Shown piece by piece: positions 24,157 to 46,548 of a stretch of 64,000 bases of DNA. This DNA is from a virus. The DNA is taken from positions 27,469-91,468 of IMG/VR virus record IMGVR_UViG_3300050821_007139. One strand, given 5' to 3'. A program made the translations under genes and the position numbers. The notes below the pieces were generated by a model. The model saw only the letters and a list, made by a program, of their open reading frames with translations, was not told the origin of the DNA and did no database searches. How positions within the stretch are numbered: position 1 is the first letter of the stretch; every line of letters starts with the position of its first letter.

Positions 24157-24753
24157 TTAAATTTCTATATCAGAGCCAGATTCGTTGTTATAAGAATAAT
24201 CAGCCCAATCGAACCAATCAAAGATGCGTTTTTGTTTAGCGCGCTCGTCCCAAATAAACCATGCGTAACAAGTATTGCTTGGCGCTTCAGGGCCGGTCCA
24301 ATTGTATCGGTGCATCATAGGCAATCGGCGTGAAGATATCCAAAGCCGTGCTGGTGGATGTTTGCGAAAGAAGGGGAGTCTATTACAGCTTTCTAAGAAA
24401 TTGGTTCTTAATAAGAACGCTACATAAGGAACTTCACTGATTGCTTTCTTGGCGAATTCGACTGCGAGCTTATAGGGTGGATTTGTTATTATACCCTCCC
24501 ATGACATTTTAACTGCTAGGAAAAAATCTACCATTGAAGACCCATATCCATAATCCATAATATCTGAACTAAAAACATCAAAATTATTATCTTTTAAAAC
24601 TTTACTTATTGCTCCGTCTCCACAAGCGGGTTCCCAAATGTAATGAGGAATAAATTCTTTTTCTATATTAATTAGTGATATTGTAGCCTCTGGTGGCGTG
24701 AAATATGCATCTAAACCTCGGTCTTCAAAATTATGCGAGCTTTGAATTAGCAT
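24157..24753 (-). CDS. SAM-dependent DNA amino-methyltransferase
   Basis: Y.TP, EPACGDG (motif I), ITNPPY (motif IV). Confidence 0.85.
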   Translation of the reverse strand: MLIQSSHNFEDRGLDAYFTPPEATISLINIEKEFIPHYIWEPACGDGAISKVLKDNNFDVFSSDIMDYGYGSSMVDFFLAVKMSWEGIITNPPYKLAVEFAKKAISEVPYVAFLLRTNFLESCNRLPFFRKHPPARLWISSRRLPMMHRYNWTGPEAPSNTCYAWFIWDERAKQKRIFDWFDWADYSYNNESGSDIEI

Positions 24754-24765
24754 AACTTTATCTTT

Positions 24766-25092
24766 TTAACGTATATTTCGTTCTGTAAACGGGATGATTA
24801 AGTTCTTTTCAAATAATCTTTCTTTTGCTTTTAACATCCCTGGCGACCATCCTAAGTCAATATAAAATGCTATTAATTCGGCACTTGACCACCAAGCATA
24901 TCCAGATTCTATCCCCATTTGCCTTTGTTCCGGTTTATTATCATCTAAAAATAATGGATATAATAGATGTGATCCAAATGGAGCCTCTCCGCGTTTTAAG
25001 CTATCTAATGCAGCTTCATAAGCATAAGCTTTATTTAAGGCTATATTGCCAGCAAAAGGAGATTCTATAATAACTCTACGACGTAATTGCAT
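24766..25092 (-). CDS. DUF4406/nucleoside deoxyribosyltransferase-like fold protein
   Basis: IESPFAG, RGEAPF.SHLLY, G.S.GM. Confidence 0.6.
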   Translation of the reverse strand: MQLRRRVIIESPFAGNIALNKAYAYEAALDSLKRGEAPFGSHLLYPLFLDDNKPEQRQMGIESGYAWWSSAELIAFYIDLGWSPGMLKAKERLFEKNLIIPFTERNIR

Positions 25093-25094
25093 TT

Positions 25095-26240
25095 TTATTC
25101 CTCGCGTTTTAAACTCTCGCCATGAGCAAGCATAGACTTCCAGGCAATTTCGTTGCTGTATATCGAAGCCAAGTAACCCAGCCCGCGCCGCTTTTCTGGC
25201 AACGTGGCGTGTTGTAAAATCATTGGATCATCGGCGCAATTATTAACTATGATACCTATTCGTAGAAAATGACTTATATCGAAGATGCCATTTTGAAAGG
25301 CTTTTGGAACTGGAGAGCGCAATGCGCCTATCAGTAATTCCCATGCTTGAATTTCCTCTTCTAAACTTTTCCAATAATTAAGCTCGGGATCTTCTCGGGT
25401 CATGAAAGGAATTACAAGCGATTCGTAAGGACTTCTGGCAAAACTTACCATAGATATAAGTTCGGATAAGATCCGCCGCATTGGAACTGGCATATTTTTG
25501 ATTTCAGACCGGGAGAACAGGGCATATCCGGTTTCGATGTCGATTGTATAAGATTCAGCAGGCTGAGCTAGCCAAGTTTTGATTTCACTTAGGGTTATCT
25601 TTTCTTTCGTTTTTGGATCTTCACAAGTTATCCAGCGTTTGATTCGTCTTATTTCGGGAAAGTTTGATTCGTAGGCGACCTTTTGTAGATCTGAAATAAT
25701 ATCTGTTCTTAGTTGTTCTTGGCGCAGTGCTGCAGGATGGAATGTTGGAAAGACCTTTTTATTAAATCTCAAGCTTAGCTTAGGCGTGCCTCGAATTGAG
25801 CTTATATTAGTTATGCCTAGTAACGCCCAACAGGCATAGTTTCCTAAAGCGACGATTACATTGGGATTATGATTCTCTATTTCTTTCCATAAGTTCTCGA
25901 TATGATAGCGATATTCGGATTTGACATAAAAGATGCGGTTATTGATCTTGATTGGGGGTAAACTTGTGTCTATATTTCCTTGTGTAGCGAAGAATAGTTC
26001 GGTCTTATCGCCTTCCGGGTGTTCGTTGAAGACATTTGTTACTGCAATTTGGTGCTCGTCTTTTAGCCATTTCCAATGAGAGATCATGTCTTCAAGGCTT
26101 GGATAAGGTACGCGCAGTTCAGGCGCAAGATTGGAGCTTCCTAGCATCTTTGCTAATTCTCGGCCTGACCAGCCGACTAATGGATGACCGACTAGGGCTT
26201 CATTTTTTCCTAAACTTTCGGCTACAAGAACTACTTTCAT
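25095..26240 (-). CDS. UDG-like domain fused to a partial 3'-5' exonuclease (N-terminal half of split polymerase)
   Basis: AESLG..E...G.PLVG.SG, ALGNYA and TFHPA (family 4 UDG-like); DIET (ExoI), QN..FD (ExoII); no ExoIII. Confidence 0.8.
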   Translation of the reverse strand: MKVVLVAESLGKNEALVGHPLVGWSGRELAKMLGSSNLAPELRVPYPSLEDMISHWKWLKDEHQIAVTNVFNEHPEGDKTELFFATQGNIDTSLPPIKINNRIFYVKSEYRYHIENLWKEIENHNPNVIVALGNYACWALLGITNISSIRGTPKLSLRFNKKVFPTFHPAALRQEQLRTDIISDLQKVAYESNFPEIRRIKRWITCEDPKTKEKITLSEIKTWLAQPAESYTIDIETGYALFSRSEIKNMPVPMRRILSELISMVSFARSPYESLVIPFMTREDPELNYWKSLEEEIQAWELLIGALRSPVPKAFQNGIFDISHFLRIGIIVNNCADDPMILQHATLPEKRRGLGYLASIYSNEIAWKSMLAHGESLKREE

Positions 26241-27622
26241 CTTACAGCTTCACTAGCTTTTCTTTTAGATCTTTCTTTTAGAGTTAATTCGTTAGCTTTG
26301 GCTGCGTATTCTTCATTAATTTCAATTCCCAGTACACTTCGGGCGCCTAGGCTTTCGGCAGCTCGAATTGCACTTCCGCTGCCGGAACATATATCTAAAA
26401 AATCTGTAGCGTTATCGACTAGCATTGATAGAAAATGTTTCAGCATTGATTCTGATTTTTGATTAGGAACGATTGGAGATGTAACTGCAGGGGCCGCGTA
26501 ACAGTCTGTCATTTTTTTAAATAAGGCTCGGTCGCCCCGGGTAACTAATAGACAACTTTCATAGCTTGGCTTAGGATGCAGTCCACGCACACCTGGAGCG
26601 CCGTTATTTGTGTCTGATTTGAACCAAATTAAAGGATAATCGGTAAGAAAGAATTGAGAATTGATAAATTTATTTATGATTGGCAGGGAATCTCCTTCAC
26701 GATCTAACCAAAACATTATATGACAACTGTAACTAGCAAAGTTGTCTATATTATCAATTAATGAATTTGGCAAAGCATAATACGAATTTTCATCATGTGT
26801 AAAATCACAATGAATCAGGTTAAATTTATCTCCGGAATAACTCTCGCTCCAAGATATAAAATCGGTAGTTATAATTGGAGGAGTAGCTTTATCCAAATTC
26901 GGCTTTGGTTTTACATCTGTAATAATAGTTTCAGTTTTTGAAATTGGCATTAATTGTTCATGATTTGTGTCAGTATAGATATCATGTGTATCTGAATAAC
27001 TAACTAATGTTGGAAGGACAGAATCGGCTAGTTTTGTTACTTGATCCTTATTTAAGGGGGCGCGTAGTAGTTCTTCGACTAAATCTGCGGCTTTTTTTTC
27101 CTCCTTTCGTTGTAAGATGCCTAGGGCTTGCGTAAAGTTATCAGCGTTAGATAATAGTGGTGAGTCTAATTCTTTAAAGACATTTAATATGTTTCCGATT
27201 TGTTGCGGGGTGTAATTTAAAGCTTCAGCTGTTTTGGAGTTTGTCCAAGAGATATCTTTGCTTGTTTTATTTTTATGAAAATCTCCTATGGCGCTGACAT
27301 GATCCTGCCAAGATAAGTTTTCGCGCTTGATATTTTCTTCAAGTTCGATAATTTGAAGCTCGTCTGGATCTAAGGTATCGTAATAACGTATGGGAACTTG
27401 GCTTAAGTTTAGTTCTAATGCACAAAGTAATCGTCTGTGTCCGGCGACTAAGGTTAGTTTGTCTAATCGCTCTAGCTTTTCTCTATGAACAATTATTGGG
27501 TTCCAGATTCCTCTGGATCTTATGGAATCTATTAAACCTTCTGTTGTCGCATTCTTTCGTTGGCGCTCGCCTATATTTATCTCGCCTGGATCAACAAAGT
27601 CGATTTCATTTGTTATTGGCAT
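26237..27622 (-). CDS. ParB-like domain fused to a degenerate methyltransferase domain
   Basis: RQR, SI...G...PI, LVAGHRR, ELEENIKR; C-terminal DICSGSGS; DPPY position reads DFTH. Confidence 0.75.
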   Translation of the reverse strand: MPITNEIDFVDPGEINIGERQRKNATTEGLIDSIRSRGIWNPIIVHREKLERLDKLTLVAGHRRLLCALELNLSQVPIRYYDTLDPDELQIIELEENIKRENLSWQDHVSAIGDFHKNKTSKDISWTNSKTAEALNYTPQQIGNILNVFKELDSPLLSNADNFTQALGILQRKEEKKAADLVEELLRAPLNKDQVTKLADSVLPTLVSYSDTHDIYTDTNHEQLMPISKTETIITDVKPKPNLDKATPPIITTDFISWSESYSGDKFNLIHCDFTHDENSYYALPNSLIDNIDNFASYSCHIMFWLDREGDSLPIINKFINSQFFLTDYPLIWFKSDTNNGAPGVRGLHPKPSYESCLLVTRGDRALFKKMTDCYAAPAVTSPIVPNQKSESMLKHFLSMLVDNATDFLDICSGSGSAIRAAESLGARSVLGIEINEEYAAKANELTLKERSKRKASEAVR

Positions 27623-27810
27623 GGGTTTGTTCCGGTCTCCTTTGGAGGCTGGATGCGCTCCCCGATTACACTAATGTCTGAATAGACAACCATCTCCTCT
27701 CCTTGAGCCAGGATAAACCATTCGTGGCCGGTCCATTCCGCAGGCTCCCATTTATTATGAGAACTAGGCTTGACCCAATAAAAACCTTCTTCTAGTTTGA
27801 TCTTTGGCAT
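27613..27810 (-). CDS. Hypothetical protein
   Basis: GFYWV...WEPAEW small phage domain. Confidence 0.55.
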   Translation of the reverse strand: MPKIKLEEGFYWVKPSSHNKWEPAEWTGHEWFILAQGEEMVVYSDISVIGERIQPPKETGTNPCQ

Positions 27811-27825
27811 AAGGAAATTAACTTA

Positions 27826-28206
27826 TTATCTGACGCCAATAGCATTGATTATTCCGACGATTTGTAAGGTTCCATCGGGTCCATTTCCGAAACAAGGCAC
27901 CATTGGGGCCGAATAAGGAAATACAGGTGTGTAGTCGAATACAGTTGCTACTTCGATAGGATCGTTAGCGAGGTATTTTGTATGTATTGTGGTCCAACGC
28001 ATTTGTGCGTCAGAGTCATGGACGTTAATGGCGAAGGTTTTACCGTTTACTACAAATTTTGCGCATAGCGGCCCGGCGGGTAAGAAGTCGCTTGGGACCC
28101 CTGCAGCACTCCAGGTTGCGTTGGATCTTATTGGCGGCGACTGTGCTAAAGTTGCATTGGTGATTGCGATGAGACTTGTAGTGGCGAATATGATTATTTT
28201 AAACAT
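27826..28206 (-). CDS. Small secreted protein, paralog of 28462-28812
   Basis: Signal peptide; AGPLCAK..V.G...AI; AAGGAG SD. Confidence 0.7.
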   Translation of the reverse strand: MFKIIIFATTSLIAITNATLAQSPPIRSNATWSAAGVPSDFLPAGPLCAKFVVNGKTFAINVHDSDAQMRWTTIHTKYLANDPIEVATVFDYTPVFPYSAPMVPCFGNGPDGTLQIVGIINAIGVR

Positions 28207-28461
28207 AGATTATCTCCTTAGGTTGATTTTTTGTTAGGTTTTTGAAGTGATTTTCGCGAGCTTTTGGCGCCTTTACGTTTCATAATAGCGCTTGACCGAC
28301 GGCGTTTGGCAGTTGGGGTTGTGGACATTTTAAATTTTCTTCCCTTATAACATGGGGCTCCCCTCGTCGTTACCCGAAGCTAAGCGTTCAAAATTAGTCT
28401 GCCGAGTAGGCACAGACTACAAAGCTCCGCCCATGTTATCTTGAGTTGAGTTGACTTTACT

Positions 28462-28812
28462 TTAGTTTACGAAGTCTACTCCTGGGAGAAGTACACCCCC
28501 ATCGTTGCAAAGGACTGTATTGGTGCTGCCGGTGCCGAGGGCCGGATAGGTGTTGATTTGCATGGGGAGGCCGCTAAGGGCACGGAAATCCATCGTTTGG
28601 AGGCGTGCGAGAGCTTGTGCGGCTGGCGTATGGACCAAATCGACCGCGACCTGGACGCCACCAACGGTGCGCTTGGCGCAGAACGCCCCCGCTGTCGCCT
28701 TGCTAGGGTCATTGGTTCCCGAAGCGGTTACTACCGCCTGAGCCGATGCGTAATTGCTGCTAAGCAAAACGGCGCCAAAAGCGACTGCGATAGCGAGATT
28801 AATTTTAGACAT
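28462..28812 (-). CDS. Small secreted protein
   Basis: Signal peptide ending ASA; AGAFCAK..V.G...AV. Confidence 0.7.
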   Translation of the reverse strand: MSKINLAIAVAFGAVLLSSNYASAQAVVTASGTNDPSKATAGAFCAKRTVGGVQVAVDLVHTPAAQALARLQTMDFRALSGLPMQINTYPALGTGSTNTVLCNDGGVLLPGVDFVN

Positions 28813-28890
28813 GATTTGATTCCTAGATTAGTTTGAGATTAGATTAGGGTTTGACTTGAGATTGACTTGACTTTAGCTTGACTTGACTTA
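28813..28890. repeat. Pentamer-periodic TTGAC/TTAGA tract
   Basis: ttgacttgagattgacttgactttagcttgacttgactta; shorter related tract at 28441-28465. Confidence 0.7.
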
Positions 28891-29382
28891 TCGTGGCGCC
28901 CCGACCATAAAGCTGATATTATTGAACACTCGTGGGGCCGCATCTTCTGGTTCACCTGGCCGTTTCTTGCCCGGCCTAGATGTAACGGTTAGCAATACCC
29001 GCTTTCCAATAACTTCATCTACCAACTGATCGGTGGATAGGTTTTGATTAAACTCTGGGAAGGACTTGAAGAGAATCTTAAAGGCGTGCATGCGATTTGT
29101 AGCAATTTCTAGTGCATAGGGGGGAAGGTTCATGCTTCGTAAATCAACGCCTTCTAGATCTTCCGTTGAAACATCTTCGGCTGGTTCAAGTAGTTGGCAA
29201 TGATAAAGAATAGCTTCGGTTTCGGGATTCCAAGGGGTCTGCCCTTTTTCTCGTCGGGTGACTACGCCGTAGTAATGGCCTGCTTTTAGTGTTGGCGGGC
29301 CGTCAGGCAGGGAAGAGACGGGCGCTGACATTGGATCTTCATGATAATCGCGCGCGTCGAAAGCTTTAGCTGTTTGAGCCAT
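28888..29382 (-). CDS. Putative ssDNA-binding protein
   Basis: P.LKAGHY start; OB-like pattern; follows the AAA ATPase as in Sak4-SSB modules. Confidence 0.5.
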   Translation of the reverse strand: MAQTAKAFDARDYHEDPMSAPVSSLPDGPPTLKAGHYYGVVTRREKGQTPWNPETEAILYHCQLLEPAEDVSTEDLEGVDLRSMNLPPYALEIATNRMHAFKILFKSFPEFNQNLSTDQLVDEVIGKRVLLTVTSRPGKKRPGEPEDAAPRVFNNISFMVGAPR

Positions 29383-29402
29383 AAAGTTGGGTTCCTATAA
29401 GG

Positions 29403-30434
29403 TTAGGTTAGGATAGGGTTTAGGGTTTGTTTGGGTTGTGTATAGTTCGGTTTTGGGTCCTCCTTCTTAAAGCTGGTTCGGTTTTGGATAGCTTCAATTA
29501 ACTCTTTTGGTTCAGGCTTCCCTTGAAGTTTGCAAAATATTTCAGCTAAACCAGTGCTTACATCGTAAGTTGGCTTTAGACTGAAGGGCGCGCTAGTTTT
29601 GACTGCTATTGCGCCTTGAGGAGTTGTATGGATTAGTCTTTTTGTATTTCTCCCGGTTCCTTCTATTCGCATTTCGACTACATTATTAAAGTATCTTCCG
29701 AATCTTGGACCCAAAGCGCGGCCAAGTGCACTTGGAAAGGCTTTTTCGGAGCCGAAAATATCGCTTGAATTGGAGCTTAGGACACGATTTTTTTGTCCGG
29801 TTTTATTATCCTCCATGAAGCTTTCACTTATGTAATTTATATGGGTGATTACTATTACATGGCACTTGACTGCATCGGAGTATAGAAATCGTAGTACATT
29901 TTCCATTTTTTCTTGTGCGGCGCCTATAAATCTTCGCCATTCGTTACCTAATGGTTCGGCGCCTAATTTACTATTCATTTGTTGAACGTAGCTTAAAGCT
30001 GCATAGCCAGAGAAAGTCGAAGAGTCGAGTACTATTACGCTATCTTCACTCCAAGATGTAATTGGGCCTAATTTGACTCCACAGGCTTCGTCCCAGGAGT
30101 TTAGTAATTTTTCTATCTTTGGCCAAACGGTAGCGCTTTGGGGTTGAATCCTGACCTTATCTCCGCCTAGATCCATTGTTATCATTTTATGATTAACAGT
30201 TTCGTATCGGAAGGATTCTTCGAGATCGAGACTTTGTGCAATTTTATAATATGGGCTTTCAGGATCATGGAGGCAATTTAAAATTATATCTAATCCGTTA
30301 TCGACATCAATAACACGCAATTTATGACCGTTTAGAATTAAGGAAACTATGGCGCCGCTTTTGCCGACACCGGAATCTCCGGCAATACAAATCTTGATTG
30401 GTTTCTTGCCTAAACCTTCAGCGCCGGAAGTCAT
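29403..30434 (-). CDS. Sak4-like/AAA_24 ATPase
   Basis: GDSGVGKS, D.DNG, VLDS, VI.H, RYFN. Confidence 0.75.
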   Translation of the reverse strand: MTSGAEGLGKKPIKICIAGDSGVGKSGAIVSLILNGHKLRVIDVDNGLDIILNCLHDPESPYYKIAQSLDLEESFRYETVNHKMITMDLGGDKVRIQPQSATVWPKIEKLLNSWDEACGVKLGPITSWSEDSVIVLDSSTFSGYAALSYVQQMNSKLGAEPLGNEWRRFIGAAQEKMENVLRFLYSDAVKCHVIVITHINYISESFMEDNKTGQKNRVLSSNSSDIFGSEKAFPSALGRALGPRFGRYFNNVVEMRIEGTGRNTKRLIHTTPQGAIAVKTSAPFSLKPTYDVSTGLAEIFCKLQGKPEPKELIEAIQNRTSFKKEDPKPNYTQPKQTLNPILT

Positions 30435-30535
30435 TTAGGATCTCTTCCAAAGTATGATATTAATACTACAAATAAACATGCTACAAAGCCGGAAATACAT
30501 ATACATTGCTCCCAAGTCATGATTCAAATTACTCC

Positions 30536-30733
30536 TTAACCATTCTCTGATTTTGTTTCTTCTACTTTTCCGTGATTAAAGTTCGGCCCTGCTTTTGGGT
30601 CAGGATCGATTCGCTCCCCGGGCGGGTGTTGATGTACGGTGCCATCAGGACGAATGTAAAGTGGTATTTGCAGATTATCACTTAATTGTTGAACTTTGGC
30701 TTTAGCTACAGGGTCGATTTCTTTTGTTTTCAC
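30536..30733 (-). CDS. Hypothetical protein
   Basis: GTGA coupling. Confidence 0.5.
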   Translation of the reverse strand: MKTKEIDPVAKAKVQQLSDNLQIPLYIRPDGTVHQHPPGERIDPDPKAGPNFNHGKVEETKSENG

Positions 30734-30978
30734 TTGTAGTGCTCATCATTATCTTTTACTAATTTTTCAGCTGCGGTTTTGGCTTGTTCTTTAGTTATGT
30801 ATTCGCCAAACCCCGCCCCGTTTTTATAAACACCCCACGGATTTGTGGTCTGTTTGGCGTGCATTACCATAACTAATACTTTGCCGGTACTTTCTTCAAC
30901 GAATCTCTCATATTCTTCAACGCTGTCGCTTGATGCAATCCACATCGCTGCCACTATGGCGATAATAGGCTTGTTCAT
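30730..30978 (-). CDS. Hypothetical protein
   Basis: 82 aa ORF in operon. Confidence 0.5.
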   Translation of the reverse strand: MNKPIIAIVAAMWIASSDSVEEYERFVEESTGKVLVMVMHAKQTTNPWGVYKNGAGFGEYITKEQAKTAAEKLVKDNDEHYK

Positions 30979-30982
30979 CTCT

Positions 30983-31180
30983 TTATTTCCGCTTTAGGAC
31001 TATTCTGATTGAGTGCGGCCCGAAATTTATTTGTTGCGTTTCGCCTTTAACTTGTAGAGTAACCTCGCCTGTTACTTCATCAGCGGCTATAATATCCCCG
31101 GGCACATCGCGATAACTATCGGTGCGGATTATCTTATATCTAGCTTTTTCTTCTGTGTTATCGCCGGATTCGAATTTCAT
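30983..31180 (-). CDS. Small beta-rich protein, paralog of 21765-21992
   Basis: Clear internal homology. Confidence 0.7.
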   Translation of the reverse strand: MKFESGDNTEEKARYKIIRTDSYRDVPGDIIAADEVTGEVTLQVKGETQQINFGPHSIRIVLKRK

Positions 31181-31350
31181 AATAAATCTTCCAACTTTGG
31201 TGGATTATAGCGATGACGGCACTGCTGACATTCGTATGGCTTATCATTGGCATTTAAATGAAAAATTTTGGTAGCTCTACCGCTGCATTTGGGGCAGACC
31301 CGTGGTGAAGTCCATTTTTTAGGAGCCTTTAATCTGTCCTCTATGATCAC
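31177..31350 (-). CDS. Zinc-ribbon protein (57 aa, not in ORF track)
   Basis: Hand translation ...VCPKCSG...YECQQCRHRY...; GTGA/ATGA coupling on both sides. Confidence 0.65.
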   Translation of the reverse strand: MIIEDRLKAPKKWTSPRVCPKCSGRATKIFHLNANDKPYECQQCRHRYNPPKLEDLL

Positions 31351-32715: not shown

Positions 32716-32919
32716 TCACTTATCTTGACTTAAGTGCTGAGCAGTTTTCAAATTACTTAATGCGATATGGATTTGCGTTTGTGCGTTATTTGAAAGCTTC
32801 TCTTCTAGAGCTTTGTTTAAATAAAGCTCTATATTGCTCATAAGGAACTTAATTGCTTTTAGCTCGCCGGAACTAAGCCGCTTCGAGCGTGAGCTTGGAT
32901 TTGTTTTTGTTTCGCTCAT
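32716..32919 (-). CDS. Hypothetical protein
   Basis: ATGA coupling. Confidence 0.5.
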   Translation of the reverse strand: MSETKTNPSSRSKRLSSGELKAIKFLMSNIELYLNKALEEKLSNNAQTQIHIALSNLKTAQHLSQDK

Positions 32920-33308
32920 ATCTCAATATCCTTGGCCATATCTAGGGCTTCGCTTATTGAAACTGTTTTCTTTCGGGTCTTTTTTGGTTCTAGTAGATCC
33001 TTTTCGATTTTTTCTTTGGCTAATTTGGCGAAATGAGATTTTTTATCGCGGACCCAACGAGCTAAGTAACGGACATTTGTAGTTAGATCCTCATTGCTTA
33101 ACGATAATGGGTTTGTATTAAAAGTAATCTGCGCTCGTTCCATAAGCTCGTCTAGCGATTTTGGATCGGCTTCGCTTAATGGCGAATTAGCACTGGCTTC
33201 TAAGAGAGCCTTTAGTGGCGATTGAGATTCTTCATTCATTTTGGACGGTCCGGGCAGTAATCGCACATTAATGGTGCGCCAATTAATATAAACGTTGCGC
33301 CGTGCCAA
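32916..33308 (-). CDS. Hypothetical protein ending DIEI (probable start MNEES ~33239)
   Basis: EADP.SLDEL motif; C-terminal DIEI. Confidence 0.6.
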   Translation of the reverse strand: MARRNVYINWRTINVRLLPGPSKMNEESQSPLKALLEASANSPLSEADPKSLDELMERAQITFNTNPLSLSNEDLTTNVRYLARWVRDKKSHFAKLAKEKIEKDLLEPKKTRKKTVSISEALDMAKDIEI

Positions 33309-33598: not shown

Positions 33599-33627
33599 GA
33601 TATTAGACCTGACTTGAGTTTCATTGC

Positions 33628-33825: not shown

Positions 33826-33831
33826 GAGAAT

Positions 33832-35049: not shown

Positions 35050-35418
35050 TTATATCTCTATTTCTCTTTCTAGCTCGAATTGGGTTTCTTGAAGTTTGTA
35101 GCTTCGCTTTAGATCCTTAGCAAATTCAACATCGCTGGGTTCATTGATTGAGCTTAGATTAATTTCAAATAAAGTCTCTAGGGTATTTTCTGGATCAAGC
35201 CGGTAAGAGTTGATAATCTCGCTTAGCTTTTCGTCGGGAATTATTCGTGTGACTTGGCGAGATAGATATCTTCCGGAACCGGAGTTTGGAATCATCGCAC
35301 TTATTGTTATTGTTTCGTCTTGATTTGGAAATAGGTTTAATCGCGGCACGACGACGCGTTTGCCGAGTAACTCGGGAATATCATTTATTCTTTTTCGATT
35401 GGGGTCAAAGAGGTTCAA
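35050..35418 (-). CDS. Hypothetical protein ending EIEI
   Basis: 122 aa; AAAGGA SD. Confidence 0.6.
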   Translation of the reverse strand: MNLFDPNRKRINDIPELLGKRVVVPRLNLFPNQDETITISAMIPNSGSGRYLSRQVTRIIPDEKLSEIINSYRLDPENTLETLFEINLSSINEPSDVEFAKDLKRSYKLQETQFELEREIEI

Positions 35419-35756: not shown

Positions 35757-36035
35757 TTAGATTTTTATATCTTCTGAACTTATTTGTTCTTTATCTGAAT
35801 TTAGAATCCATAACTCATATTCGGGATTGTCTGGGCTTATTCGGATCTGCAAGTTGGCATATTTAGCGTTTGGGTATTTGGAGCGGAATTTGTAAAGTAA
35901 CATGCGGGCTTGAAAGGAGTCTTCGGTGCCGATTCTATAGCCGGTTTGGGCGTCAGCCCCGGCGCTTAGTGCAGCCTCACACATAATACCTAGAGGGGAA
36001 TCTAGGGTTAGATAATTGTATGAAGCCTCTGTCAT
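35757..36035 (-). CDS. Hypothetical protein ending DIKI
   Basis: 92 aa ORF in operon. Confidence 0.55.
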   Translation of the reverse strand: MTEASYNYLTLDSPLGIMCEAALSAGADAQTGYRIGTEDSFQARMLLYKFRSKYPNAKYANLQIRISPDNPEYELWILNSDKEQISSEDIKI

Positions 36036-37333: not shown

Positions 37334-37910
37334 GGAAGGTTTTCAGTGCGCAAGGGCGATTATGGCGCCCAATGACGCTACGAGCAGCGCAAGCAAAATC
37401 TGGGAGATCGCTGCGATCTTGTTTTCAGATGCGGTACGCTCGCCAGCGACGGGGGTTAGCGAGATCTGCATCTCGCCAGATTCGAGTTTCTCCCGAACCC
37501 CTGGTGGATAGACGAGCGCTCCATCAGGGCCTTTTTTTGCTCCGGTTTCTGCCATGTATTGATTAAGGATGGCAGAAAAGGCGGCTGAGCGTGAGTCTCG
37601 TTGGGCCATTTTCATTTTTCTCCTGTTGAAGTTGTTCATTTGTTTTCCTTTAGTTGCTCTAGGATCTTTTCTAGCGTCATATAAATACGCCATAATGCCA
37701 TGTTCACTGTTGCTGATGTTAGCACTAGAAGTAGTATTATAGTGGCCATCATTGGTTATATCTGCCCCGATTCTACATCGTAGCAATAATCCTCGCAGAT
37801 GTCTTGTAGAGCTTGAGCCAGGGATTTTATCGTATCTTCGGAAGCTTTAGAGTCTTGTAGGAAATATTGAGCCAATTCGTAGCATTTTTCATCATATGAA
37901 TATTTCCTAT

Positions 37911-38324
37911 TCATATCTCGATCTCCGATTCGGGTTTAGATATTTGTGATATTTCTTTTCGTAGTTTTGGTTCGGACTTAAATCTTGGTTTGTTACCTAA
38001 GCTTAGATTAGGAAAACCCCACCGATCGGTGTGCTCCAAAGCTCGCTTTAGATAATCTAGGGACATATCTCTTGTTATTAATATATCTCCGTCGTTATCG
38101 CAGAGATAACGGTAATTTTGAGCCCAGATTGGGAGGGTGAAATAAGTTGTGCTCTCGTTTTTCTTATTCCAATGCCAAGTTGTTACGTCAACGACCGCAT
38201 TTAAGGTGCCATGTTCGCTTAGAAATTGAGCTAGTGGGCAATAATTACGATCGCTTGCTTCGCCAATGATGGAATCTGGAGCGAAGCTTTCGTGCCAAGA
38301 TTGGAATTCGGTTGGATCTAGCAT
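37911..38324 (-). CDS. Hypothetical protein ending EIEI
   Basis: CPLA.FL...LP.WA motif. Confidence 0.65.
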   Translation of the reverse strand: MLDPTEFQSWHESFAPDSIIGEASDRNYCPLAQFLSEHGTLNAVVDVTTWHWNKKNESTTYFTLPIWAQNYRYLCDNDGDILITRDMSLDYLKRALEHTDRWGFPNLSLGNKPRFKSEPKLRKEISQISKPESEIEI

Positions 38325-39302: not shown

Positions 39303-39322
39303 GTTTTCACTCCTTTTGGTTT

Positions 39323-39409
39323 TGGTAGGTGTGGAGGGACTCGAACCCTCAAAGAGAACGGATTTTAAGTCCGCAAGTTGTGCCAGTTCACTATTATCTC
39401 CACACACCT
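39323..39409 (-). tRNA. tRNA-Leu(UAA), atypical
   Basis: Acceptor AGGTGTG/CACACCT-A-CCA; D arm AGT-GAACTGGCACA-ACT; anticodon arm GCGGA-CTTAAAA-TCCGT; T arm GAGGG-TTCGAGT-CCCTC. Confidence 0.85.
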
Positions 39410-39716
39410 AAAAGGGTTTTGCTAAAAGACTCCTGCTAGAGCTAGGATTGCGAAAGCTAAGATTGCACTTGCGCTTGGGCCGATGATATAGTCTATGATT
39501 TGTAGTGAGGTCATGGTTTAAATCCTTGCGGGTTGCGGTTTGCAGTCTACCTTTTGTTCGCCATTGGAGATTCCACTGAGTCCTAGCCCGATCGATACAC
39601 CTTCTGCGGCTGCCCTGCAGAGACTCTCGGTCGAGTAGCAAATGACGGTGCCCTGATGTGGTGGATTGAATATGAGCGCCCAACTCATTGTTGCTGCGTA
39701 GCATAGCTGCATTACT

Positions 39717-39917
39717 CTATCTCCAACCGATTGTAGCTGGAATATATGAAGCCAGTTCTTTAAGTTCTTCTTCGTTGAGCGTAAGTGTATATAGATTTTT
39801 ATTGTCTAACCCGGATAGCTCGAACACATATGAGCCAAAATCGGATCTTAGCCGGGATTTGATCTCGGCTTCTAATATGCATAGCCGACTAAAGGCTGAT
39901 GTTTTATGAATCTTCAT
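39717..39917 (-). CDS. Hypothetical protein
   Basis: ATGA coupling; AAGGAG SD. Confidence 0.5.
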   Translation of the reverse strand: MKIHKTSAFSRLCILEAEIKSRLRSDFGSYVFELSGLDNKNLYTLTLNEEELKELASYIPATIGWR

Positions 39918-40180
39918 GATATCGGGCTCCTTCCTTCAATATAGCAGTGCAAAACCCAACGATCCCACCACGGTTGAATTTTTGCTAGACGTATAACTTC
40001 GGCGTGTGTTAGATACTTGTGGTCAATTAAAGTTTGCATAGTAGCATTTTTACCTAGACATTTCTTGGCTAGTTTTAGCCTTGCTCTTACTGTTCCTGTA
40101 GAAATTATAATGTTATCATTAATTTGTCGAATGACATTCTGACTTTGTTTGTAGCTTTTCCATTGCTGTATTAGTTTCAT
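39914..40180 (-). CDS. Hypothetical protein
   Basis: AAAGGA SD. Confidence 0.5.
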   Translation of the reverse strand: MKLIQQWKSYKQSQNVIRQINDNIIISTGTVRARLKLAKKCLGKNATMQTLIDHKYLTHAEVIRLAKIQPWWDRWVLHCYIEGRSPIS

Positions 40181-40362
40181 GATTTATTTCCTTTCTTAGT
40201 TTTTGGCTTCCCGTTATACAAAACCCAGTCCGATTGAACTGAATCCATAGCACGTCGGGTTCTATCAGTCTCGCGAGCCAAATCTTCGATTAGCTCGTCT
40301 GTGAGCTTGAAAGCGCTTTCTTCGGGATCGTAAGAATCGGAATCTAGCTTTGACATTGTTTT

Positions 40363-40629
40363 TTACTCCTTTACACGAAGGAAGGGTGAGTTTAGGCTAT
40401 GATTGTTCGGCCCGCCCCATTCGGTTCCGAGGGTTCCGTAACTATATAGTCCAACTTTAAATGGAATCCTTATACGATCCTGGTTACGTTTTTGCTTCCA
40501 AAGCTTGGTAGCTCCGTTGCGCCGGATTGTCCACCATTTGCCATTTTGCATGGCAATTTCTAGGCGACCAGCGTCTAATAATTGATCTACGTTGTCTTTT
40601 GTTAATGGTGGTGCTTTTGATATTTTCAT
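40363..40629 (-). CDS. Conserved phage hypothetical protein
   Basis: W..RRNG.TK.WK...R.RIP.K.G motif. Confidence 0.65.
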   Translation of the reverse strand: MKISKAPPLTKDNVDQLLDAGRLEIAMQNGKWWTIRRNGATKLWKQKRNQDRIRIPFKVGLYSYGTLGTEWGGPNNHSLNSPFLRVKE

Positions 40630-40877
40630 CTTACTTGACTCCTAAAGTGTTAGAGAGTGTCATGGCGATTAAGATTAGTGTCATAATCACTAAGCCTACG
40701 CTAAGTATGTAAGCTGTTCTTTTCCACATTTTTGCGATTTTGTACCAGTAAGTGTAAAGTCGCACAAATTCTGCGAAATCATATTCTTGATTCATAGGTT
40801 TCACTTTTTCTCTGGTTAACAAGCCAGATATGATCCTATTTTTATTTCATATCTGGTATCTTAATCGGAGCCTAATT

Positions 40878-41627
40878 TTATCCTTGCCTGACTAGTTCGA
40901 ACTTTTGAATAGCTTGAATAATACTTGACTCGTCGAATTCTGGTGATTGCTTGCCAATACGAAGCACATCATTGAGAATTTGTATGGCTCCGTTCCATAT
41001 GGGAGCATCATCAGCAGTACAAAGAGCAGCATGAGCAGCAGCATCAGCAGTACAAAGAGCAGCATGAGCAGCAGCATGAGCAGTACAAAGAGCAGCATGA
41101 GCAGCAGCATGAGCAGCATGAGCAGCATGAGCAGCAGCATGAGCAGCAAGAGCAGCATAAGCAGCAGCATGAGCAGCAGCATCAGCAGCAAGAGCAGCAT
41201 AAGCAGCAGCATGAGCAGCATGAGCAGCATGAGCAGCAGCACAAATTATAGAATAGTTGGCGTTATCTGGTAAGCTACGAAGGTTAAGGGCGATCATTGG
41301 CAGAGTAGGATCAAGGATTAAGGGAACAATTTTTCTCAACGTTTCAAGAATTATAAAGTGTAGACGGGCTGCTTCAGCAGCAGGATCTCGATTTCCTACG
41401 ACCCGGAGAATGAAGGGCTTTAGAAGTTGGCGTTTTTTAGTAGGCATATAATCGTTCAGTGCGACCGCATAAGCTCGGATTATTGGACAAGAACAGGGCG
41501 GGTTATCGCCGATTTTACCGTAGACTAGCCACATACCCGCATCGAAAAGGCATGCGCCGTTACGTGGATGATCAGTAGAACCTTTACGAAGATCATAGCG
41601 CCAAAGATTAGAAATGTCGGTGGTCAT
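40878..41627 (-). CDS. Hypothetical protein with Ala/His tandem repeat
   Basis: GAC..DA...D.P.C.CP.I....LND N-terminal domain followed by AAHAAH repeats. Confidence 0.75.
   Translation of the reverse strand: MTTDISNLWRYDLRKGSTDHPRNGACLFDAGMWLVYGKIGDNPPCSCPIIRAYAVALNDYMPTKKRQLLKPFILRVVGNRDPAAEAARLHFIILETLRKIVPLILDPTLPMIALNLRSLPDNANYSIICAAAHAAHAAHAAAYAALAADAAAHAAAYAALAAHAAAHAAHAAHAAAHAALCTAHAAAHAALCTADAAAHAALCTADDAPIWNGAIQILNDVLRIGKQSPEFDESSIIQAIQKFELVRQG
41003..41240. repeat. Coding tandem repeat (GCAGCATGA)n and variants
   Basis: Directly visible; encodes AAH/AAY/ALCT units. Confidence 0.9.
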
Positions 41628-41649
41628 TTTGGAACTCCTGAAGAAAGTG

Positions 41650-41677
41650 AGTGGTAGGAGAGGATTCTCCTACCACT
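41650..41677. other. Perfect hairpin AGTGGTAGGAGA-ggat-TCTCCTACCACT
   Basis: 12 bp stem after the DUF932 gene stop; near-identical arms at 46559-46586. Confidence 0.7.
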
Positions 41678-41692
41678 AAAATAGTTTGAGGT

Positions 41693-42874
41693 TTAATTTA
41701 TCCTTACTAGTTCACGTTGTTTGGAGGGTGAGAAGGGGATAAGGAGCTTACCGGCTTCACGTTCAAGCTCGGTTCGAGCGTCTTGATGCGTCAGACTTTT
41801 GGCGTATGCCGTTGCGGCTGTTACCGCATCGAAGATTGTTTCGATTGGATGATCTTCCTCGACCATGTGTTGAGTCAGGAGGGCGCTAGTATTGATCTTG
41901 CCAAAGCGCTTGGATAGGAATTCTTCTACGTCGCCCTTGATCTTGGCGGCTTGTGCGGCTTTAAGAGTCTCCTCGAACGGTTTCGCGCTGATATCGGTCC
42001 GTGCCAATTGTGCTAGGATTGGTTTGACTTCTTCCTTCCACTTGTCGGGCGCGCCTTTAGTGTGCTTGAAGGATATTTCCACCTGCTCTTGTACGCCCCA
42101 AAGGATACGATTGCCGCAGGCGTAATCGAATAGAAAGGCGCCCAAGGTGTATTTCTTGAAGCCGACTTCAGAGTTGGAGATATAAAATCCTCGGGCAAAG
42201 CTTCCGGATTGACCATTGCGACGATTTGGTATCTCGACTCGATTGGTTTCGTCGGCTAAGAAAATCCACATATCGCGGTCGGAGCCGTAGATTGTGGTGT
42301 TTTCTTTGGTGATGTTAACGCGCTTACCAAACTCGCCTGGTACTCGCCAGTCGCCACTAACGCCGTCGCCGAATTGATGGACTAATTCGTCTGTTACATC
42401 GAAATCCCAGATTCGGCCGTAGTTGGGGCCGGTAGCGGCTGCAATGGAAGCCTGATTTGTATCGGGATCACGCCGGAGCAGGATACCGATTTCATCCACG
42501 CTCCGAGCCTGCTGTAGGCCCCAATTCATGCAATCGGCTACTAATGGGCCAGGAATACCGCTGCGCATATAACCCGCAGGAACGCTGGCTAGGGCGCTAA
42601 GTTGACTGAAGCTCCAATGGGTAAAATTGACCGGGATGCCGGTTTTTCCATTTTCTGTTCTTGTCAGTGCGATATCGAAAAGATCGGTTGTGGATGGTAC
42701 AACGGTTAAGCTACGATTTGTTGTTACTAGCTGTTTGCTATGCTCGCGTTGATAGCGGCGTTGGGCCGCAAGAGCAGTTAAGCTTGTATATCGTTCATCC
42801 GGTCCCCGCTTGAACCATTCTTTGCTTACTACACTATTGGTTCCATTGTTGATTTGGGTTACTTGGGCTGACAT
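41693..42874 (-). CDS. DUF932-like protein
   Basis: W..R..DERY.SL, HWSF.QL, YGRIWD, SDRDM.IFL, NSEVG, C.NR. Confidence 0.7.
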   Translation of the reverse strand: MSAQVTQINNGTNSVVSKEWFKRGPDERYTSLTALAAQRRYQREHSKQLVTTNRSLTVVPSTTDLFDIALTRTENGKTGIPVNFTHWSFSQLSALASVPAGYMRSGIPGPLVADCMNWGLQQARSVDEIGILLRRDPDTNQASIAAATGPNYGRIWDFDVTDELVHQFGDGVSGDWRVPGEFGKRVNITKENTTIYGSDRDMWIFLADETNRVEIPNRRNGQSGSFARGFYISNSEVGFKKYTLGAFLFDYACGNRILWGVQEQVEISFKHTKGAPDKWKEEVKPILAQLARTDISAKPFEETLKAAQAAKIKGDVEEFLSKRFGKINTSALLTQHMVEEDHPIETIFDAVTAATAYAKSLTHQDARTELEREAGKLLIPFSPSKQRELVRIN

Positions 42875-42877
42875 TGC

Positions 42878-43081
42878 TTAATTCCTTTCCATAGCGTGTT
42901 GAGCAAGTTGCACGTTAATTTTTCTTAATTCATCTTTATTTAATATAACACGATATGGAATATCTTGATATTTACCTCCACGAACGGCTAATACAATACT
43001 ATCTTCCTTAATTGTTATTAGAGGATAATCTAATTCTGCTCTTGTTATCCATATTCCCTTGACACTGTGTAGAATTTTCAT
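42878..43081 (-). CDS. Hypothetical protein
   Basis: GGAG SD; 67 aa. Confidence 0.5.
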   Translation of the reverse strand: MKILHSVKGIWITRAELDYPLITIKEDSIVLAVRGGKYQDIPYRVILNKDELRKINVQLAQHAMERN

Positions 43082-43207
43082 TTGATCTTTACTCCAGTTT
43101 GTGACTAAGAGTTATTCACGCTTAATCACGTTAGATATGCTCTGATGAACATACCAAGTTAAGGTAAGGTTGGTTTTATTATTCCTTACCTTAATTGTGC
43201 TATGTTC

Positions 43208-43855
43208 CTATTGCTCGGTCATCGTCAAGCATGATTTATATCTCCTCTTCATTTGTGTTTTTTTTTCCCAGATACAGAATGAGCAATCGAATTGGCCTAC
43301 TTGGTTAATTTGAAATAGGAGCCGCTTATGACCGTGTGCGATAAATTCGTTATAAATTTTCTCAGGATCATCATTTTGACCGGGATGCCAGCCGCTTTCG
43401 TATCCACATTTTAATTCACGGTAGCCATATTTACTTAGATCAATATTTGAAAGATTGATTGCTCGTTTTGGAGTATTTTCTAGTGTAGCAATATCATCTT
43501 CTGTCAGACATTCGAGACAGTAGCATTCGTCATTATTTTGTAGATACGATGGTTGCCAGCTATGACTATCTGGGGATATACGGAGAGCGTTACCACAACC
43601 ATTGCATATGGTCCATTCATCTTCCCATTCTATCTCGTATCCCGCCCGTTCTAAAATAGAAGATAGATCGCGTGGGAAATAATTCCAGTTGGAAAATAGA
43701 ATGCCGTGCTTTGGGTTTTTATATCCAGGTTCGGCATACTCATGGGCGCCTTGTAAATTTTCAATATAACGCTCTGCTGTTCTACGCCATCCGGGTTCGT
43801 TGGCGCAGGATGGTGCCCGGCATAAGCTCTTGCGCATGATATATTGCGGGGTCAT
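43208..43855 (-). CDS. Conserved phage hypothetical protein with CxxC pairs
   Basis: YAEPGY, .NWN, EW.DEW..C..C, ESGWHPGQNDDP, GQFD. Confidence 0.7.
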   Translation of the reverse strand: MTPQYIMRKSLCRAPSCANEPGWRRTAERYIENLQGAHEYAEPGYKNPKHGILFSNWNYFPRDLSSILERAGYEIEWEDEWTICNGCGNALRISPDSHSWQPSYLQNNDECYCLECLTEDDIATLENTPKRAINLSNIDLSKYGYRELKCGYESGWHPGQNDDPEKIYNEFIAHGHKRLLFQINQVGQFDCSFCIWEKKTQMKRRYKSCLTMTEQ

Positions 43856-43873
43856 TGTTTACATTCTCCTTGG

Positions 43874-44353
43874 CTAGATTTCGATTTCTAGATCGTCTTC
43901 GCTTGGGATTCGCTTTGTAGTGAAGAATCCGTAGCGCCCGACTAGTTCGCCGCTTTGGGCCATACGCTCGATTTCTGAATTGTTGAACCCTTCGCGGCGT
44001 AATTTGCGCACTACATTTTCGCTGGGTTGAAGGACTGTAGGATCGATGAATTTAAGAGCACTTGGATAATGTGCAGCGGTATATTCGATGGTGCGGATAT
44101 GGCGTTGGTGGGCCATGAACTTTTCGTGCTCGAGTCTCTTTTCTTGCTCTTTCTTGATCGCCTGCTCTTGCATTATTATTTGTTGAGCGAGAAGTAGGGC
44201 ATTCTCGCGGATTGTGTCTGCCAGCGATTCGGCGCTCGATACAAAGACCTCGATTTGATCTAATTCAATCTTCAGGCGCGAACCGTTCTTACCGGGAGCT
44301 TCAGCTCGTAATGTTTTAAAGTCGTTGCGGAATAAAGTGATTTGGGCAGTCAT
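43874..44353 (-). CDS. Hypothetical protein ending EIEI
   Basis: 159 aa; ATGA coupling. Confidence 0.6.
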   Translation of the reverse strand: MTAQITLFRNDFKTLRAEAPGKNGSRLKIELDQIEVFVSSAESLADTIRENALLLAQQIIMQEQAIKKEQEKRLEHEKFMAHQRHIRTIEYTAAHYPSALKFIDPTVLQPSENVVRKLRREGFNNSEIERMAQSGELVGRYGFFTTKRIPSEDDLEIEI

Positions 44354-44745
44354 ATCTCTATCTCCGTTGCATCTGCTTTGCGTTGCCTACAAGCTGCATA
44401 GTTGTGTGTTCTTTCTGGCACTTGACCTAATCGGATCATTTGTTCGAACCAGTTATATCCGTGCCCGTATTTCCATCCACCATATATCAAACCTTCCATT
44501 GCATGAGCGACCTCATGTAGAAAAGTTGATATTAGGGCTATTTTTCCTTGATCTCTTAGTCCTGGATGCAAGTGTATTTTGCTTGTGCTGCCGCGACCGG
44601 CGCACGATTTTAAGTTCCAATTAAACGCAACTGGAATTTGCTTTGTTTTTTCTAATCTTGGATCGAAACTTATAGCGCGGGATAATATATCTTGTAGGCC
44701 CAGTTCTCGTGCGAAACTCTCGACAGTTCCAAGATTTTCTAACAT
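44350..44745 (-). CDS. SprT-like zinc metalloprotease
   Basis: N.L...AGR, TFLHEVAH, HG..W...M..LG..P...H. Confidence 0.8.
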   Translation of the reverse strand: MLENLGTVESFARELGLQDILSRAISFDPRLEKTKQIPVAFNWNLKSCAGRGSTSKIHLHPGLRDQGKIALISTFLHEVAHAMEGLIYGGWKYGHGYNWFEQMIRLGQVPERTHNYAACRQRKADATEIEI

Positions 44746-44766
44746 AGCTCTGGTTCCTTCCTTTTC

Positions 44767-45063
44767 TTAATGATTTCCTAAGATGGAAATTTGACAATTA
44801 GAAGGAAGTATAGTATTTATATATCGTAGCGTTTCGCTATTTCCTGCGGAAATTTCTAACAAGGCGTAATTCGTGAGGTCGCGCGAGTCTTCTTTTGTTA
44901 TGGTGTTATCTAGCGTATAAAATGCTTTTGCGATTAAACACTCGATTGTTGTAGCGTCGTAGGTTTGGTTGTTTATAAGGAATTTTTCCATAGCGGGTGG
45001 CGCCTTTGGAAGAGAGGGTTGGATTGGAAGTGTAGCACAATGGGACAATGGGTTGTCAAACAT
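44767..45063 (-). CDS. Hypothetical protein (probable start MEKF ~44991)
   Basis: First gene of the leftward operon; TTGACA at 45054-45059 lies upstream of the shorter start. Confidence 0.45.
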   Translation of the reverse strand: MFDNPLSHCATLPIQPSLPKAPPAMEKFLINNQTYDATTIECLIAKAFYTLDNTITKEDSRDLTNYALLEISAGNSETLRYINTILPSNCQISILGNH

Positions 45064-45378
45064 TAATTGAGTTGAGGAAATAGAAGGATGCTCAACGCAG
45101 GGTTGTACTACTGACTAAGGCTCCACGAACTAATTATCGTGATTAGTCCAAAAAATATTAATCCGAATGCGCAAATTAATGTCTCAATTTCCCAGCGAAT
45201 CTCTGATGGAATAACGCGCATGGTGAATCTGTCACCTGGTCTGTGAAACTGGCGGTCTGCTGTTTAGCATAGATTTGTGACTTTTTGTAGAGGGTTTGGT
45301 AGGGGATGCTTGGCAAAGCAGGCTATGTTAACGCCGATGTTGACCTGTAATGTTAGGATGGCAGAGTGGGCGCGCCGT

Positions 45379-45724
45379 GGTTCGATGGGCATGATTGAGC
45401 TTAAAGTGATGTTAGCGTCGATGTTGTAGTATGATGTTTAAGCGACCCGGGGAGGGTGGTTGTGTGTGAGGGTATCTAGGGTTGTAAGAGGGTACAACCT
45501 AGGGTATACTTACTTAAAAATATATATAAAATTAACTAAAGAGAGAAAGACATTTTCAGTTCTAAGGACGGAAATTATAATATATATACTTATACCAATA
45601 CCCTTTTGGATCGATGGCCATCCGAAAGTACCTTTACCACCCCCACCTTACCCTGCCTTGCTTAAACATTATAGCCTAACATCAGCCCTAACATCGAATC
45701 TGACCTAATCGCGCCCATAGAACC
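45379..45724. repeat. Imperfect 65 bp inverted repeat with GATGTT-type iterons flanking an AT-rich core (origin candidate)
   Basis: Arms 45379-45443 and 45660-45724 align without gaps; AT-rich core at ~45505-45600; located at the strand switch. Confidence 0.75.
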
Positions 45725-45882
45725 TCCTCAAGATTTGAATTTTGTGCTTAGTATAGGCGAAATGGGAGCCGGGCCGGAGCGGGCTCGAGTCGCGTGAGAT
45801 AGTTCCCCGACGGGTTGTGCCCGACGACGCCGCAAGCGCCCCGCTCCTCCGAAAAAAAAACCATCAAACCCCAAAATAAAAT

Positions 45883-45911
45883 TTGACAACTCTCGCGCCA
45901 TATGAGATAAC
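45883..45911 (+). promoter_or_regulatory. Putative sigma70-type early promoter
   Basis: TTGACA preceded by A-tracts (UP-like); -10 only approximate. Confidence 0.45.
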
Positions 45912-45966
45912 TCTCTCGGTTAGTCGATACCGATTAGCTGGAACCAAAGCAAAGTGGAGTTTGAAA

Positions 45967-46548
45967 ATGTCTGAGAATCGTAAGCCGCGTGAAGTTCACG
46001 ATACGGTCGCAACCCGGCTGAGCAACCTGAGCAACCAGTATCTCGTGTATGTCAAGGACGAGGCTGCTGACGTTCATATCCCGGTCGCATACACCCCGCG
46101 CTTCACGCCAGGGGGTGCTGTGACACCTGAGCTCGCACGCGCTCTCAATTGGGCGCACGTCGAAAAGGCTTCCATGTCGGCCTCTATGGCGCTCCGGAAG
46201 CACTCGGATATGCCTGACAACTTGAAGGGTGAATTTGTCACCCGTCACGTTGCGGACTATAACTTTCCGAGTGACTTCGGCGACCTCGGCGGGAACATGC
46301 TCACGCGTGCGGCTATGGAAATCGCAATGGAGCTCGGCAAAGCGCAGCTGTCCGGCCTGACAGACGCCAAGCGCGCGGCAAAGGCGGCCAAGGCTGTGGA
46401 GGCAATCCTCAACACCCCGAGCGTCGCGGACAAGTACACTGACCGCGTTTCGCAAATTGCAGCCGGTATCCTCGCGACCCGTAAGCCAGTCTCGAAGCGC
46501 ACTAAGGGCAGCGATACCGAATCTGACGCAGGCGATATCGCCGTCTAA
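45967..46548 (+). CDS. GC-rich early protein ending DIAV
   Basis: GGAG SD before ATG 45967; G/C-ending codon bias unlike neighbouring genes. Confidence 0.75.
   Translation: MSENRKPREVHDTVATRLSNLSNQYLVYVKDEAADVHIPVAYTPRFTPGGAVTPELARALNWAHVEKASMSASMALRKHSDMPDNLKGEFVTRHVADYNFPSDFGDLGGNMLTRAAMEIAMELGKAQLSGLTDAKRAAKAAKAVEAILNTPSVADKYTDRVSQIAAGILATRKPVSKRTKGSDTESDAGDIAV

Follow-up and report, generated by a model that had tools for sequence, protein, structure and literature searches.

A C-Terminal [DE]IEI Motif Shared by Unrelated Early Proteins of a Phage: A Candidate Docking Tail

We analyzed a 64,000-nt stretch of phage DNA (hereafter the window), which corresponds to bases 27469-91468 of the IMG/VR virus record IMGVR_UViG_3300050821_007139; all feature coordinates given below are window positions. 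Six proteins encoded in this region, including a DNA methyltransferase and an SprT-like metalloprotease, end in the same four residues, Asp or Glu followed by Ile-Glu-Ile ([DE]IEI). Based on its enrichment, codon pattern, and conservation, a function of this tail at the level of the peptide is very likely, and the sequence comparisons suggest docking to one shared partner protein as the best reading (probability roughly 0.55). No direct precedent for an [DE]IEI tail, or for a tail shared among early proteins, was found in the literature searched.

The virus record is a complete genome of 91,468 bp with direct terminal repeats. Across the whole genome, a mechanical set of 150 non-overlapping open reading frames (ORFs) of at least 40 aa contains six products ending in [DE]IEI, all on the minus strand, and no internal copy of the motif. 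No plus-strand (structural or late) ORF ends in this way, nor does any spurious ORF of at least 30 aa. Amino acid composition predicts 0.003 such termini (Poisson P ~1e-18 for six), and shuffling the final 20 residues of every early protein 20,000 times never produced a count above one. Thus, a chance origin of the shared tail was rejected. The initial annotation of this DNA had listed eight termini, two of them near-variants, and all eight were recovered at their positions; the lack of the tag on late-region proteins that it had described is also borne out by these counts. Its term "phage-wide" is an overstatement, as only 6-8 of about 150 proteins have the tail, and every one of these belongs to the early/DNA-metabolism arm. 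The 20 residues ahead of the tag are enriched in Lys/Arg (4.3 versus 2.7 in untagged early proteins, P = 0.03) rather than in Asp/Glu alone. This enrichment and the coil modeled for one carrier (see below) lend mild support, and no stronger one, to the charged, flexible linker that had been proposed.

The carriers and other features discussed here are listed in table 1. Homologue alignments of the methyltransferase stop at about residue 187, so that its tail (residues 188-198) lies outside the conserved domain. The four small carriers without an assigned function had no matches in Pfam, PHROGs, NCBIfam, or PDB sequences. For one of them, a helical protein of 107 aa, the mechanical ORF extends to 33308 (32916-33308) with a TTG start; its homologues begin at M24, and the true start is probably this Met codon at 33239. 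Distant homologues of the 122-aa carrier, found in four polymerase-related loci (L088, L110, L122, and L086), have other acidic/hydrophobic tails without the tag. The SEDIKI end of a 92-aa protein is a probable seventh, variant tag judging from its sequence relatives, and Lys at position -1 also occurs in a homologue of the 107-aa protein (P0130, ending SEIKF). On the other hand, AGDIAV (D-I-x-V) is a doubtful variant: the putative gene that encodes it lies on the opposite strand at a divergent junction, and no homologues of its product were found in the fetched loci.

Table 1. Positions of tail carriers, candidate partners, and neighboring features in the window.
Feature	Coordinates	Strand	C-terminus	Remarks
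DNA methyltransferase, 198 aa	24157..24753	-	SGSDIEI	phrog_799 match, 3e-55; tag codons GAT ATA GAA ATT TAA
Helical protein, 107 aa	32916..33239	-	AKDIEI	Function not assigned by homology
122-aa protein	35050..35418	-	EREIEI	Distant homologues in four loci
137-aa protein	37911..38324	-	ESEIEI	No family or PDB match
159-aa protein	43874..44353	-	DDLEIEI	Tag codons GAA ATC GAA ATC TAG
SprT-like metalloprotease, 131 aa	44350..44745	-	ATEIEI	PF10263, 3.6e-10
92-aa protein	35757..36035	-	SEDIKI	Probable variant tag; homologue L092 (13-177) ends EVEIDL
221-aa ORF	45883..46548	+	AGDIAV	Putative gene; doubtful variant
Family A DNA polymerase, 521 aa	22514..24079	-		PF00476; query for relatives; candidate reader
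OB-fold SSB-like protein, 164 aa	28888..29382	-	FMVGAPR	AlphaFold2 mean pLDDT 86.5; downstream of Sak4-like ATPase
393-aa early protein	41693..42874	-		Resembles DUF932 in language-model features and in structure (TM 0.86); no direct Pfam match
ParB-N6/N4 methylase	26237..27622	-		No tail
DUF3987 primase-helicase-like protein	20075..21283	-		Candidate reader
Sak4-like ATPase	29403..30434	-		Included in co-variation screen
UDG-like protein	25095..26240	-		Included in co-variation screen
25-codon ORF	24079..24156	-		Very hydrophobic peptide
52-aa ORF	37756..37914	-		Follows the 137-aa gene
Called ORF after the 52-aa ORF	37343..37786			Overlaps the 52-aa ORF by 31 nt

The twelve bases of the tags follow the pattern GAN ATH GAR ATH, in which only third positions vary. 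Ile is encoded by ATA, ATT, or ATC, Glu by GAA or GAG, and the first position by GAT, GAA, or GAG; the stop codons are TAA, TGA, TAA, TGA, TAG, and TGA in coordinate order. The copies thus differ in codons and stops, as the initial annotation had pointed out, and since the degeneracy falls exactly on the wobble positions, the pattern indicates selection on the peptide. The genome contains 14 copies of the degenerate string GANATNGANATN, of which only the six in the tags adjoin a stop codon; the other eight are located at no gene end and before no gene start. A nucleotide-level repeat or recombination boundary was rejected, as the likeness is limited to 12 coding nucleotides with wobble variation.

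The peptide might also be the in-frame reading of a translation signal, in which GGAG-AUN-GAR-AUA-UGA serves as a re-initiation cassette composed of a Shine-Dalgarno (SD) sequence, a spacer, and an ATGA overlap. The tags of the 107-aa protein, the 137-aa protein, and SprT are indeed ATGA-coupled: their TGA overlaps the next ATG, and GGAG or AAGGA, 8-9 nt before this downstream ATG, overlaps the first acidic codon. In the tag of the 122-aa protein, an ATG located 2 nt past the stop is preceded at this distance by the second GAG, and a start codon lies within -4 to +2 nt of the stop in five of the six tags if a 25-aa ORF next to the methyltransferase gene is counted. A similar SD overlap was observed for the tags of two contigs of a sister clade (L002 and L003), with 13-15 nucleotides identical among these tags, and in two distant relatives of the 107-aa protein that end in GDLF and GDMF, the G-D is encoded by GGAGAY. 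However, the products of about ten further ATGA-coupled early genes have unrelated C-terminal residues, and the tags of the methyltransferase and the 159-aa protein use GAA and have no SD-like sequence, yet the peptide is still [DE]IEI. The gene following the latter starts 18 nt downstream and has its own AAGGAG, and this tag has no SD role. Besides the wobble pattern and the lack of GANATNGANATN before any other start codon, the hydrophobic positions of the tail are encoded by ATN, CTN, GTG, and TTY codons across relatives. An origin as a by-product of translation signals is therefore very unlikely. The SD requirement probably helps to fix the acidic residue at position -4 but cannot account for I-E-I. 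The nucleotide pattern of three tags is partly under double constraint because the SD sequence of the downstream coupled gene overlaps their first acidic codon; the earlier proposal that selection acts at the protein level stands for the peptide but had missed this overlap in three of the six tags.

Two gene junctions of tail carriers showed additional features. Between the stop of the methyltransferase gene (TAAATG) and the start of the polymerase gene (TAATG), the gap is taken up exactly by a 25-codon ORF for a very hydrophobic peptide, MNPAWSLFIIVCIIVIIIFLTEEHK. This ORF may encode a membrane micro-peptide whose translation is coupled, or it may act as a coupling leader. The TGA of the 137-aa gene overlaps the ATG of a 52-aa ORF, which in turn overlaps the next called ORF by 31 nt, and gene calls in this region need checking.

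To place the tail in a broader context, we compared the genome with its relatives. The minus-strand block of about 12.6-45.9 kb contains replication and nucleotide-metabolism genes (the early arm), including those for a class II ribonucleotide reductase, a family A DNA polymerase (pol A), DUF3987 primase-helicase-like and UDG-like proteins, the ParB-N6/N4 methylase, a Sak4-like AAA_24 ATPase, a PD-(D/E)XK nuclease, a HIRAN-like protein, and the SprT-like protease, and the structural genes form plus-strand blocks. No close cultured relative was detected by megablast of 15 kb against the phage collection. The best tblastn match for the phage DNA polymerase was in a Caulobacter phage (31% identity), and no phage matches to the 107-aa protein were found. 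Scans of viral contigs with single proteins or the 107-aa family alignment as queries gave no matches, nor did a scan of genome contigs. The closest relatives, with 59-69% pol A identity, are metagenome or Logan contigs only; a sister clade was read via three JGI soil contigs (L001-L003, 63% pol A identity). In a relative with a complete genome of 56.5 kb (L157 9320-11932, record G001), the pol A orthologue has 870 aa compared with 521 here; an insertion of about 300 residues, perhaps an intein or an additional domain, separates the segments that match residues 1-328 and 337-502.

Comparative analysis revealed both gain and loss of the tail. The ParB-methylase of the window has no tail, whereas its orthologues in the sister clade align to the end of the window protein and then continue for 13 extra residues ending in TTEIDL or TTEIEL. 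In addition, L003 encodes a protein of the cytidine/dCMP-deaminase family that ends in FREIDL. The 198-aa methyltransferase has no orthologue in the three sister contigs, and none of the best 150 of its 7,840 homologues in a representative library has the tail. The nearest SprT homologue (P0002, 53% identity) also lacks the tag and ends in VDIQKFIGSS. Among more distant pol A-related loci, a HIRAN homologue ends in VEIEI (L086) although the HIRAN protein of the window has no tail; a ParB-methylase orthologue ends in EDLDL (L021), a protein without an assigned function in EIEF (L047), and the homologue of the 92-aa SEDIKI protein in EIDL (L092). Overall, [DE][IV][DE][ILF]-COOH was found seven times among 2,163 unique ORF products of pol A-related loci, compared with 0.6 expected from its internal frequency. 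Because these tags are scattered on single proteins of relatives, and 67 of the 70 distinct ParB-methylase tails in the wider group are untagged, the tail, as far as the sequences indicate, is a mobile appendage with a patchy distribution that has undergone expansion in this phage.

The most extensive comparison was possible for the 107-aa protein. Its family comprises 13 members: the window protein, eight metagenomic homologues with 50-63% identity (P0124-P0131), and four proteins from fetched loci. Despite identities of 24-65%, all 13 have a hydrophobic-x-hydrophobic or D-hydrophobic-F C-terminus (DIEI, QIEL, EIEL in three proteins, EIQL, QVEL, NVEF, EIKF, DVEF, DLDL, GDLF, and GDMF). The four closest homologues of the window protein have a Leu tip, as do L002 and L003. 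The linker ahead of the tip is basic and varies in both length and sequence, and an AlphaFold2 model shows a helical protein with a basic coil linker and low confidence for the last residues. Thus, the tail is maintained in this family and is missing from distant methyltransferase homologues, a pattern that agrees with selection at the protein level, as had been suggested from the sequence of the window. At the other end of the family, a nearly invariant N-terminal peptide, LLEASANSPL(S/T)EA(D/E)..S.DEL, is shared by the window protein and P0124-P0131 and corresponds to no database family; it may be a second linear motif.

The last residue of the tail is the same on non-orthologous carriers in all three genomes or contigs that have at least two tags: Ile in the six tags here (seven with DIKI), Leu in two of L003, and Phe in two of L047. 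A tip that is uniform within a genome and differs between genomes would be expected if the tails had one shared reader. A C-terminal degron or timing signal, by which a host or phage protease or unfoldase would clear the early proteins together when they are no longer needed, fits the uniform tip equally well. The restriction of the tail to the early arm and its exposed position at the extreme C-terminus, after a flexible linker, are also in line with such a signal, and ssrA-type degrons are recognized through their C-terminal residues and free carboxylate. On the other hand, the C-degrons known from bacteria are non-polar (LAA-like), and ClpX recognition is blocked by acidic residues beside the terminus; all six tags have Glu at position -1, unlike the non-polar last three residues of the ssrA/ClpX type. 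Moreover, the Pfam scan of early proteins detected no recognizable protease or unfoldase of the phage, and DNA methyltransferases and a repair protease are expected to be useful throughout replication. Taken together, a degron appears quite unlikely.

The location of the carriers also bears on whether the tail could be a sorting signal for a compartment or the particle, such as one for capsid loading or membrane targeting. C-terminal cargo-loading peptides exist in HK97-fold encapsulins, and co-injected methyltransferases are known from phage P1. However, the carriers belong to the earliest part of the early arm rather than to the late genes, structural proteins lack the tail, and no supporting feature was found, which makes such a role extremely improbable.

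Docking, the reading we prefer, has several known counterparts. In phage T4, the hydrophobic-acidic C-termini of gp43, gp33, and gp55 bind the sliding clamp gp45, are interchangeable, and are located on divergent unstructured linkers (PMC2988020). As in T4 and RB69, functionally different proteins, six of them here, share a hydrophobic-acidic extreme C-terminus. The T4 tails on divergent linkers are read by one hub; here, the linker of the 107-aa family varies and is modeled as coil, and the methyltransferase tail lies outside its domain. Unlike T4, this phage has no gp45-type clamp (PF09116 is unmatched), the motif consists of four residues with alternating acid and Ile and without aromatics, and the 6-7 carriers are modification or repair enzymes and proteins without assigned function rather than a polymerase and sigma factors. 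In T7, another phage with a family A polymerase, a basic patch of this polymerase is the docking site of the acidic gp2.5 tail, which ends in Phe (PMC12339929). The gp2.5 and gp4 tails, like those described here, combine acidic residues with a C-terminal hydrophobic one, and they attach accessory proteins to the replisome. They differ in being long acidic runs that end in Phe on the single-stranded DNA-binding protein (SSB) and the helicase, whereas here 2-4 acidic residues follow basic ones and precede a final Ile, and neither the OB-fold SSB-like protein nor the primase-helicase has a tail.

Ligands of the bacterial beta-clamp have the motif QL[S/D]LF, often at the C-terminus, and Pol IV uses L-G-L (PMC3716654). 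Such motifs likewise often occupy the extreme C-terminus, occur on many DNA enzymes, and insert two hydrophobic residues into one pocket. I-E-I and I-E-L are spaced like L-G-L but have a charged middle residue, Glu in place of Gly or of Ser/Asp followed by L-F; two distant orthologues of the 107-aa protein end in GDLF and GDMF. With respect to PDZ domains, the last four residues fit Class II/III ligands (hydrophobic-x-hydrophobic-COOH and [DE]-x-hydrophobic-COOH), but the phage has no match to the PDZ domain PF13180. Bacterial PDZ proteins are mostly periplasmic.

The C-terminal tip of SSB (D-D-D-I-P-F-COOH), a docking peptide in DNA metabolism, resembles the tail in its order of acid, Ile, any residue, and hydrophobic residue with a free carboxylate. 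Each carrier could thus mimic the tail of host SSB and enter, or compete for, the pockets of host SSB-interacting proteins. Some tails end in Phe (P0129, P0130, and L047), and the phage's own OB-fold protein is tail-less. However, the tags contain no penultimate Pro and no acidic run, the residues before them are basic, and the terminal residue here is Ile instead of Phe. The arrangement is also different: the annotated carriers are a methyltransferase and an SprT-like protein, not an OB-fold SSB, and many carriers presumably have one reader here, whereas SSB is one carrier with many readers. Mimicry of SSB is hardly probable. The tail would work like known docking termini but belongs to none of them, with no gp45, Gln, Pro-Phe, or long acidic run.

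In summary, [D/E]-I-E-I-COOH is a protein-level short linear motif, appended to unrelated early proteins through variable, polar, and slightly basic linkers. The carriers are the methyltransferase, the SprT-like protease, and four or five small proteins of unassigned function in this phage, and the ParB-methylase, the deaminase-like protein, and the HIRAN protein in relatives; those with known functions, which include two kinds of methylase, act on DNA. A reasonable hypothesis is that both aliphatic side chains, together with the free carboxylate, fit a pocket on one common partner, which would tether several DNA-modifying and DNA-repair enzymes to the same hub. This hub would probably be located at the replication fork and might be the sliding clamp of the host or one of the phage replisome proteins (such as pol A, the OB-fold SSB-like protein, or the primase-helicase). 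In eukaryotes, DNMT1, SPRTN, and HLTF are all associated with PCNA, and it is by analogy with these three proteins that we favor the fork.

Several candidate readers were considered. The 164-aa OB-fold protein, which was recognized by none of Pfam, PHROGs, and NCBIfam, is conserved in 13 other loci, and its best Foldseek matches are PrgE, RPA, SSB, and PriB. Judging from its predicted structure, it probably serves as SSB in this phage group; its own end has no acidic tail, and it is one candidate reader. The DUF3987 protein and the host clamp are further candidates, as is pol A. In a crude co-variation screen of pol A and of the orthologues of the UDG-like, DUF3987, Sak4-like, and PD-(D/E)XK proteins, pol A residue 141 (FFYDxMx[I/L/F]PP) was identical to the tip letter of the tag in 8/8 genomes.

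A number of observations weigh against docking to a single partner. Residue 141 is the sole column that tracks the tip and is marginal, given that several proteins were screened and that pol A by itself has 44 variable aliphatic columns. In the complete phage genome, neither a PDZ domain nor a clamp of the beta or gp45 type was found: PF00712 (DNA_pol3_beta) and PF09116 had no match, and a Pfam scan of 60 early proteins detected no clamp family. Two early proteins were rejected as clamps, the 393-aa protein because it is DUF932-like and a 249-aa protein because it belongs to an unnamed fold family. The hallmarks of known ligands are also largely missing, with Gln in none of the six tags and in two of the 13 tails of the 107-aa family (SQIEL and AQVEL, position -3), Pro or Phe in none of the six, and no acidic run. 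The uniform tip rests on few genomes and essentially one Ile/Leu switch relative to the sister clade, whose 107-aa family members are protein sequences not placed in genomes. Finally, the patchiness of the system, with most ParB-methylase tails of the wider group untagged, counts in the same direction.

A broader scenario, which we consider unlikely as a whole, is that the tail reflects a widespread and undescribed organization of early infection. It would be a lineage-specific address code in which the tip (I, L, or F) and a single reader evolve together, and in this lineage the SSB arrangement would be inverted, with an SSB-like hub lacking a tail and client enzymes (methylases, deaminase, SprT, and HIRAN) carrying the docking peptide. 

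If one reader does bind all tails, a peptide of only four residues would mark out a functional module within the early genes of this uncultured phage lineage that could otherwise not be annotated. Four or five proteins of unassigned function would then be linked to DNA methylation, repair, and replication, and the tail would serve as a portable handle in pull-downs aimed at the hub.

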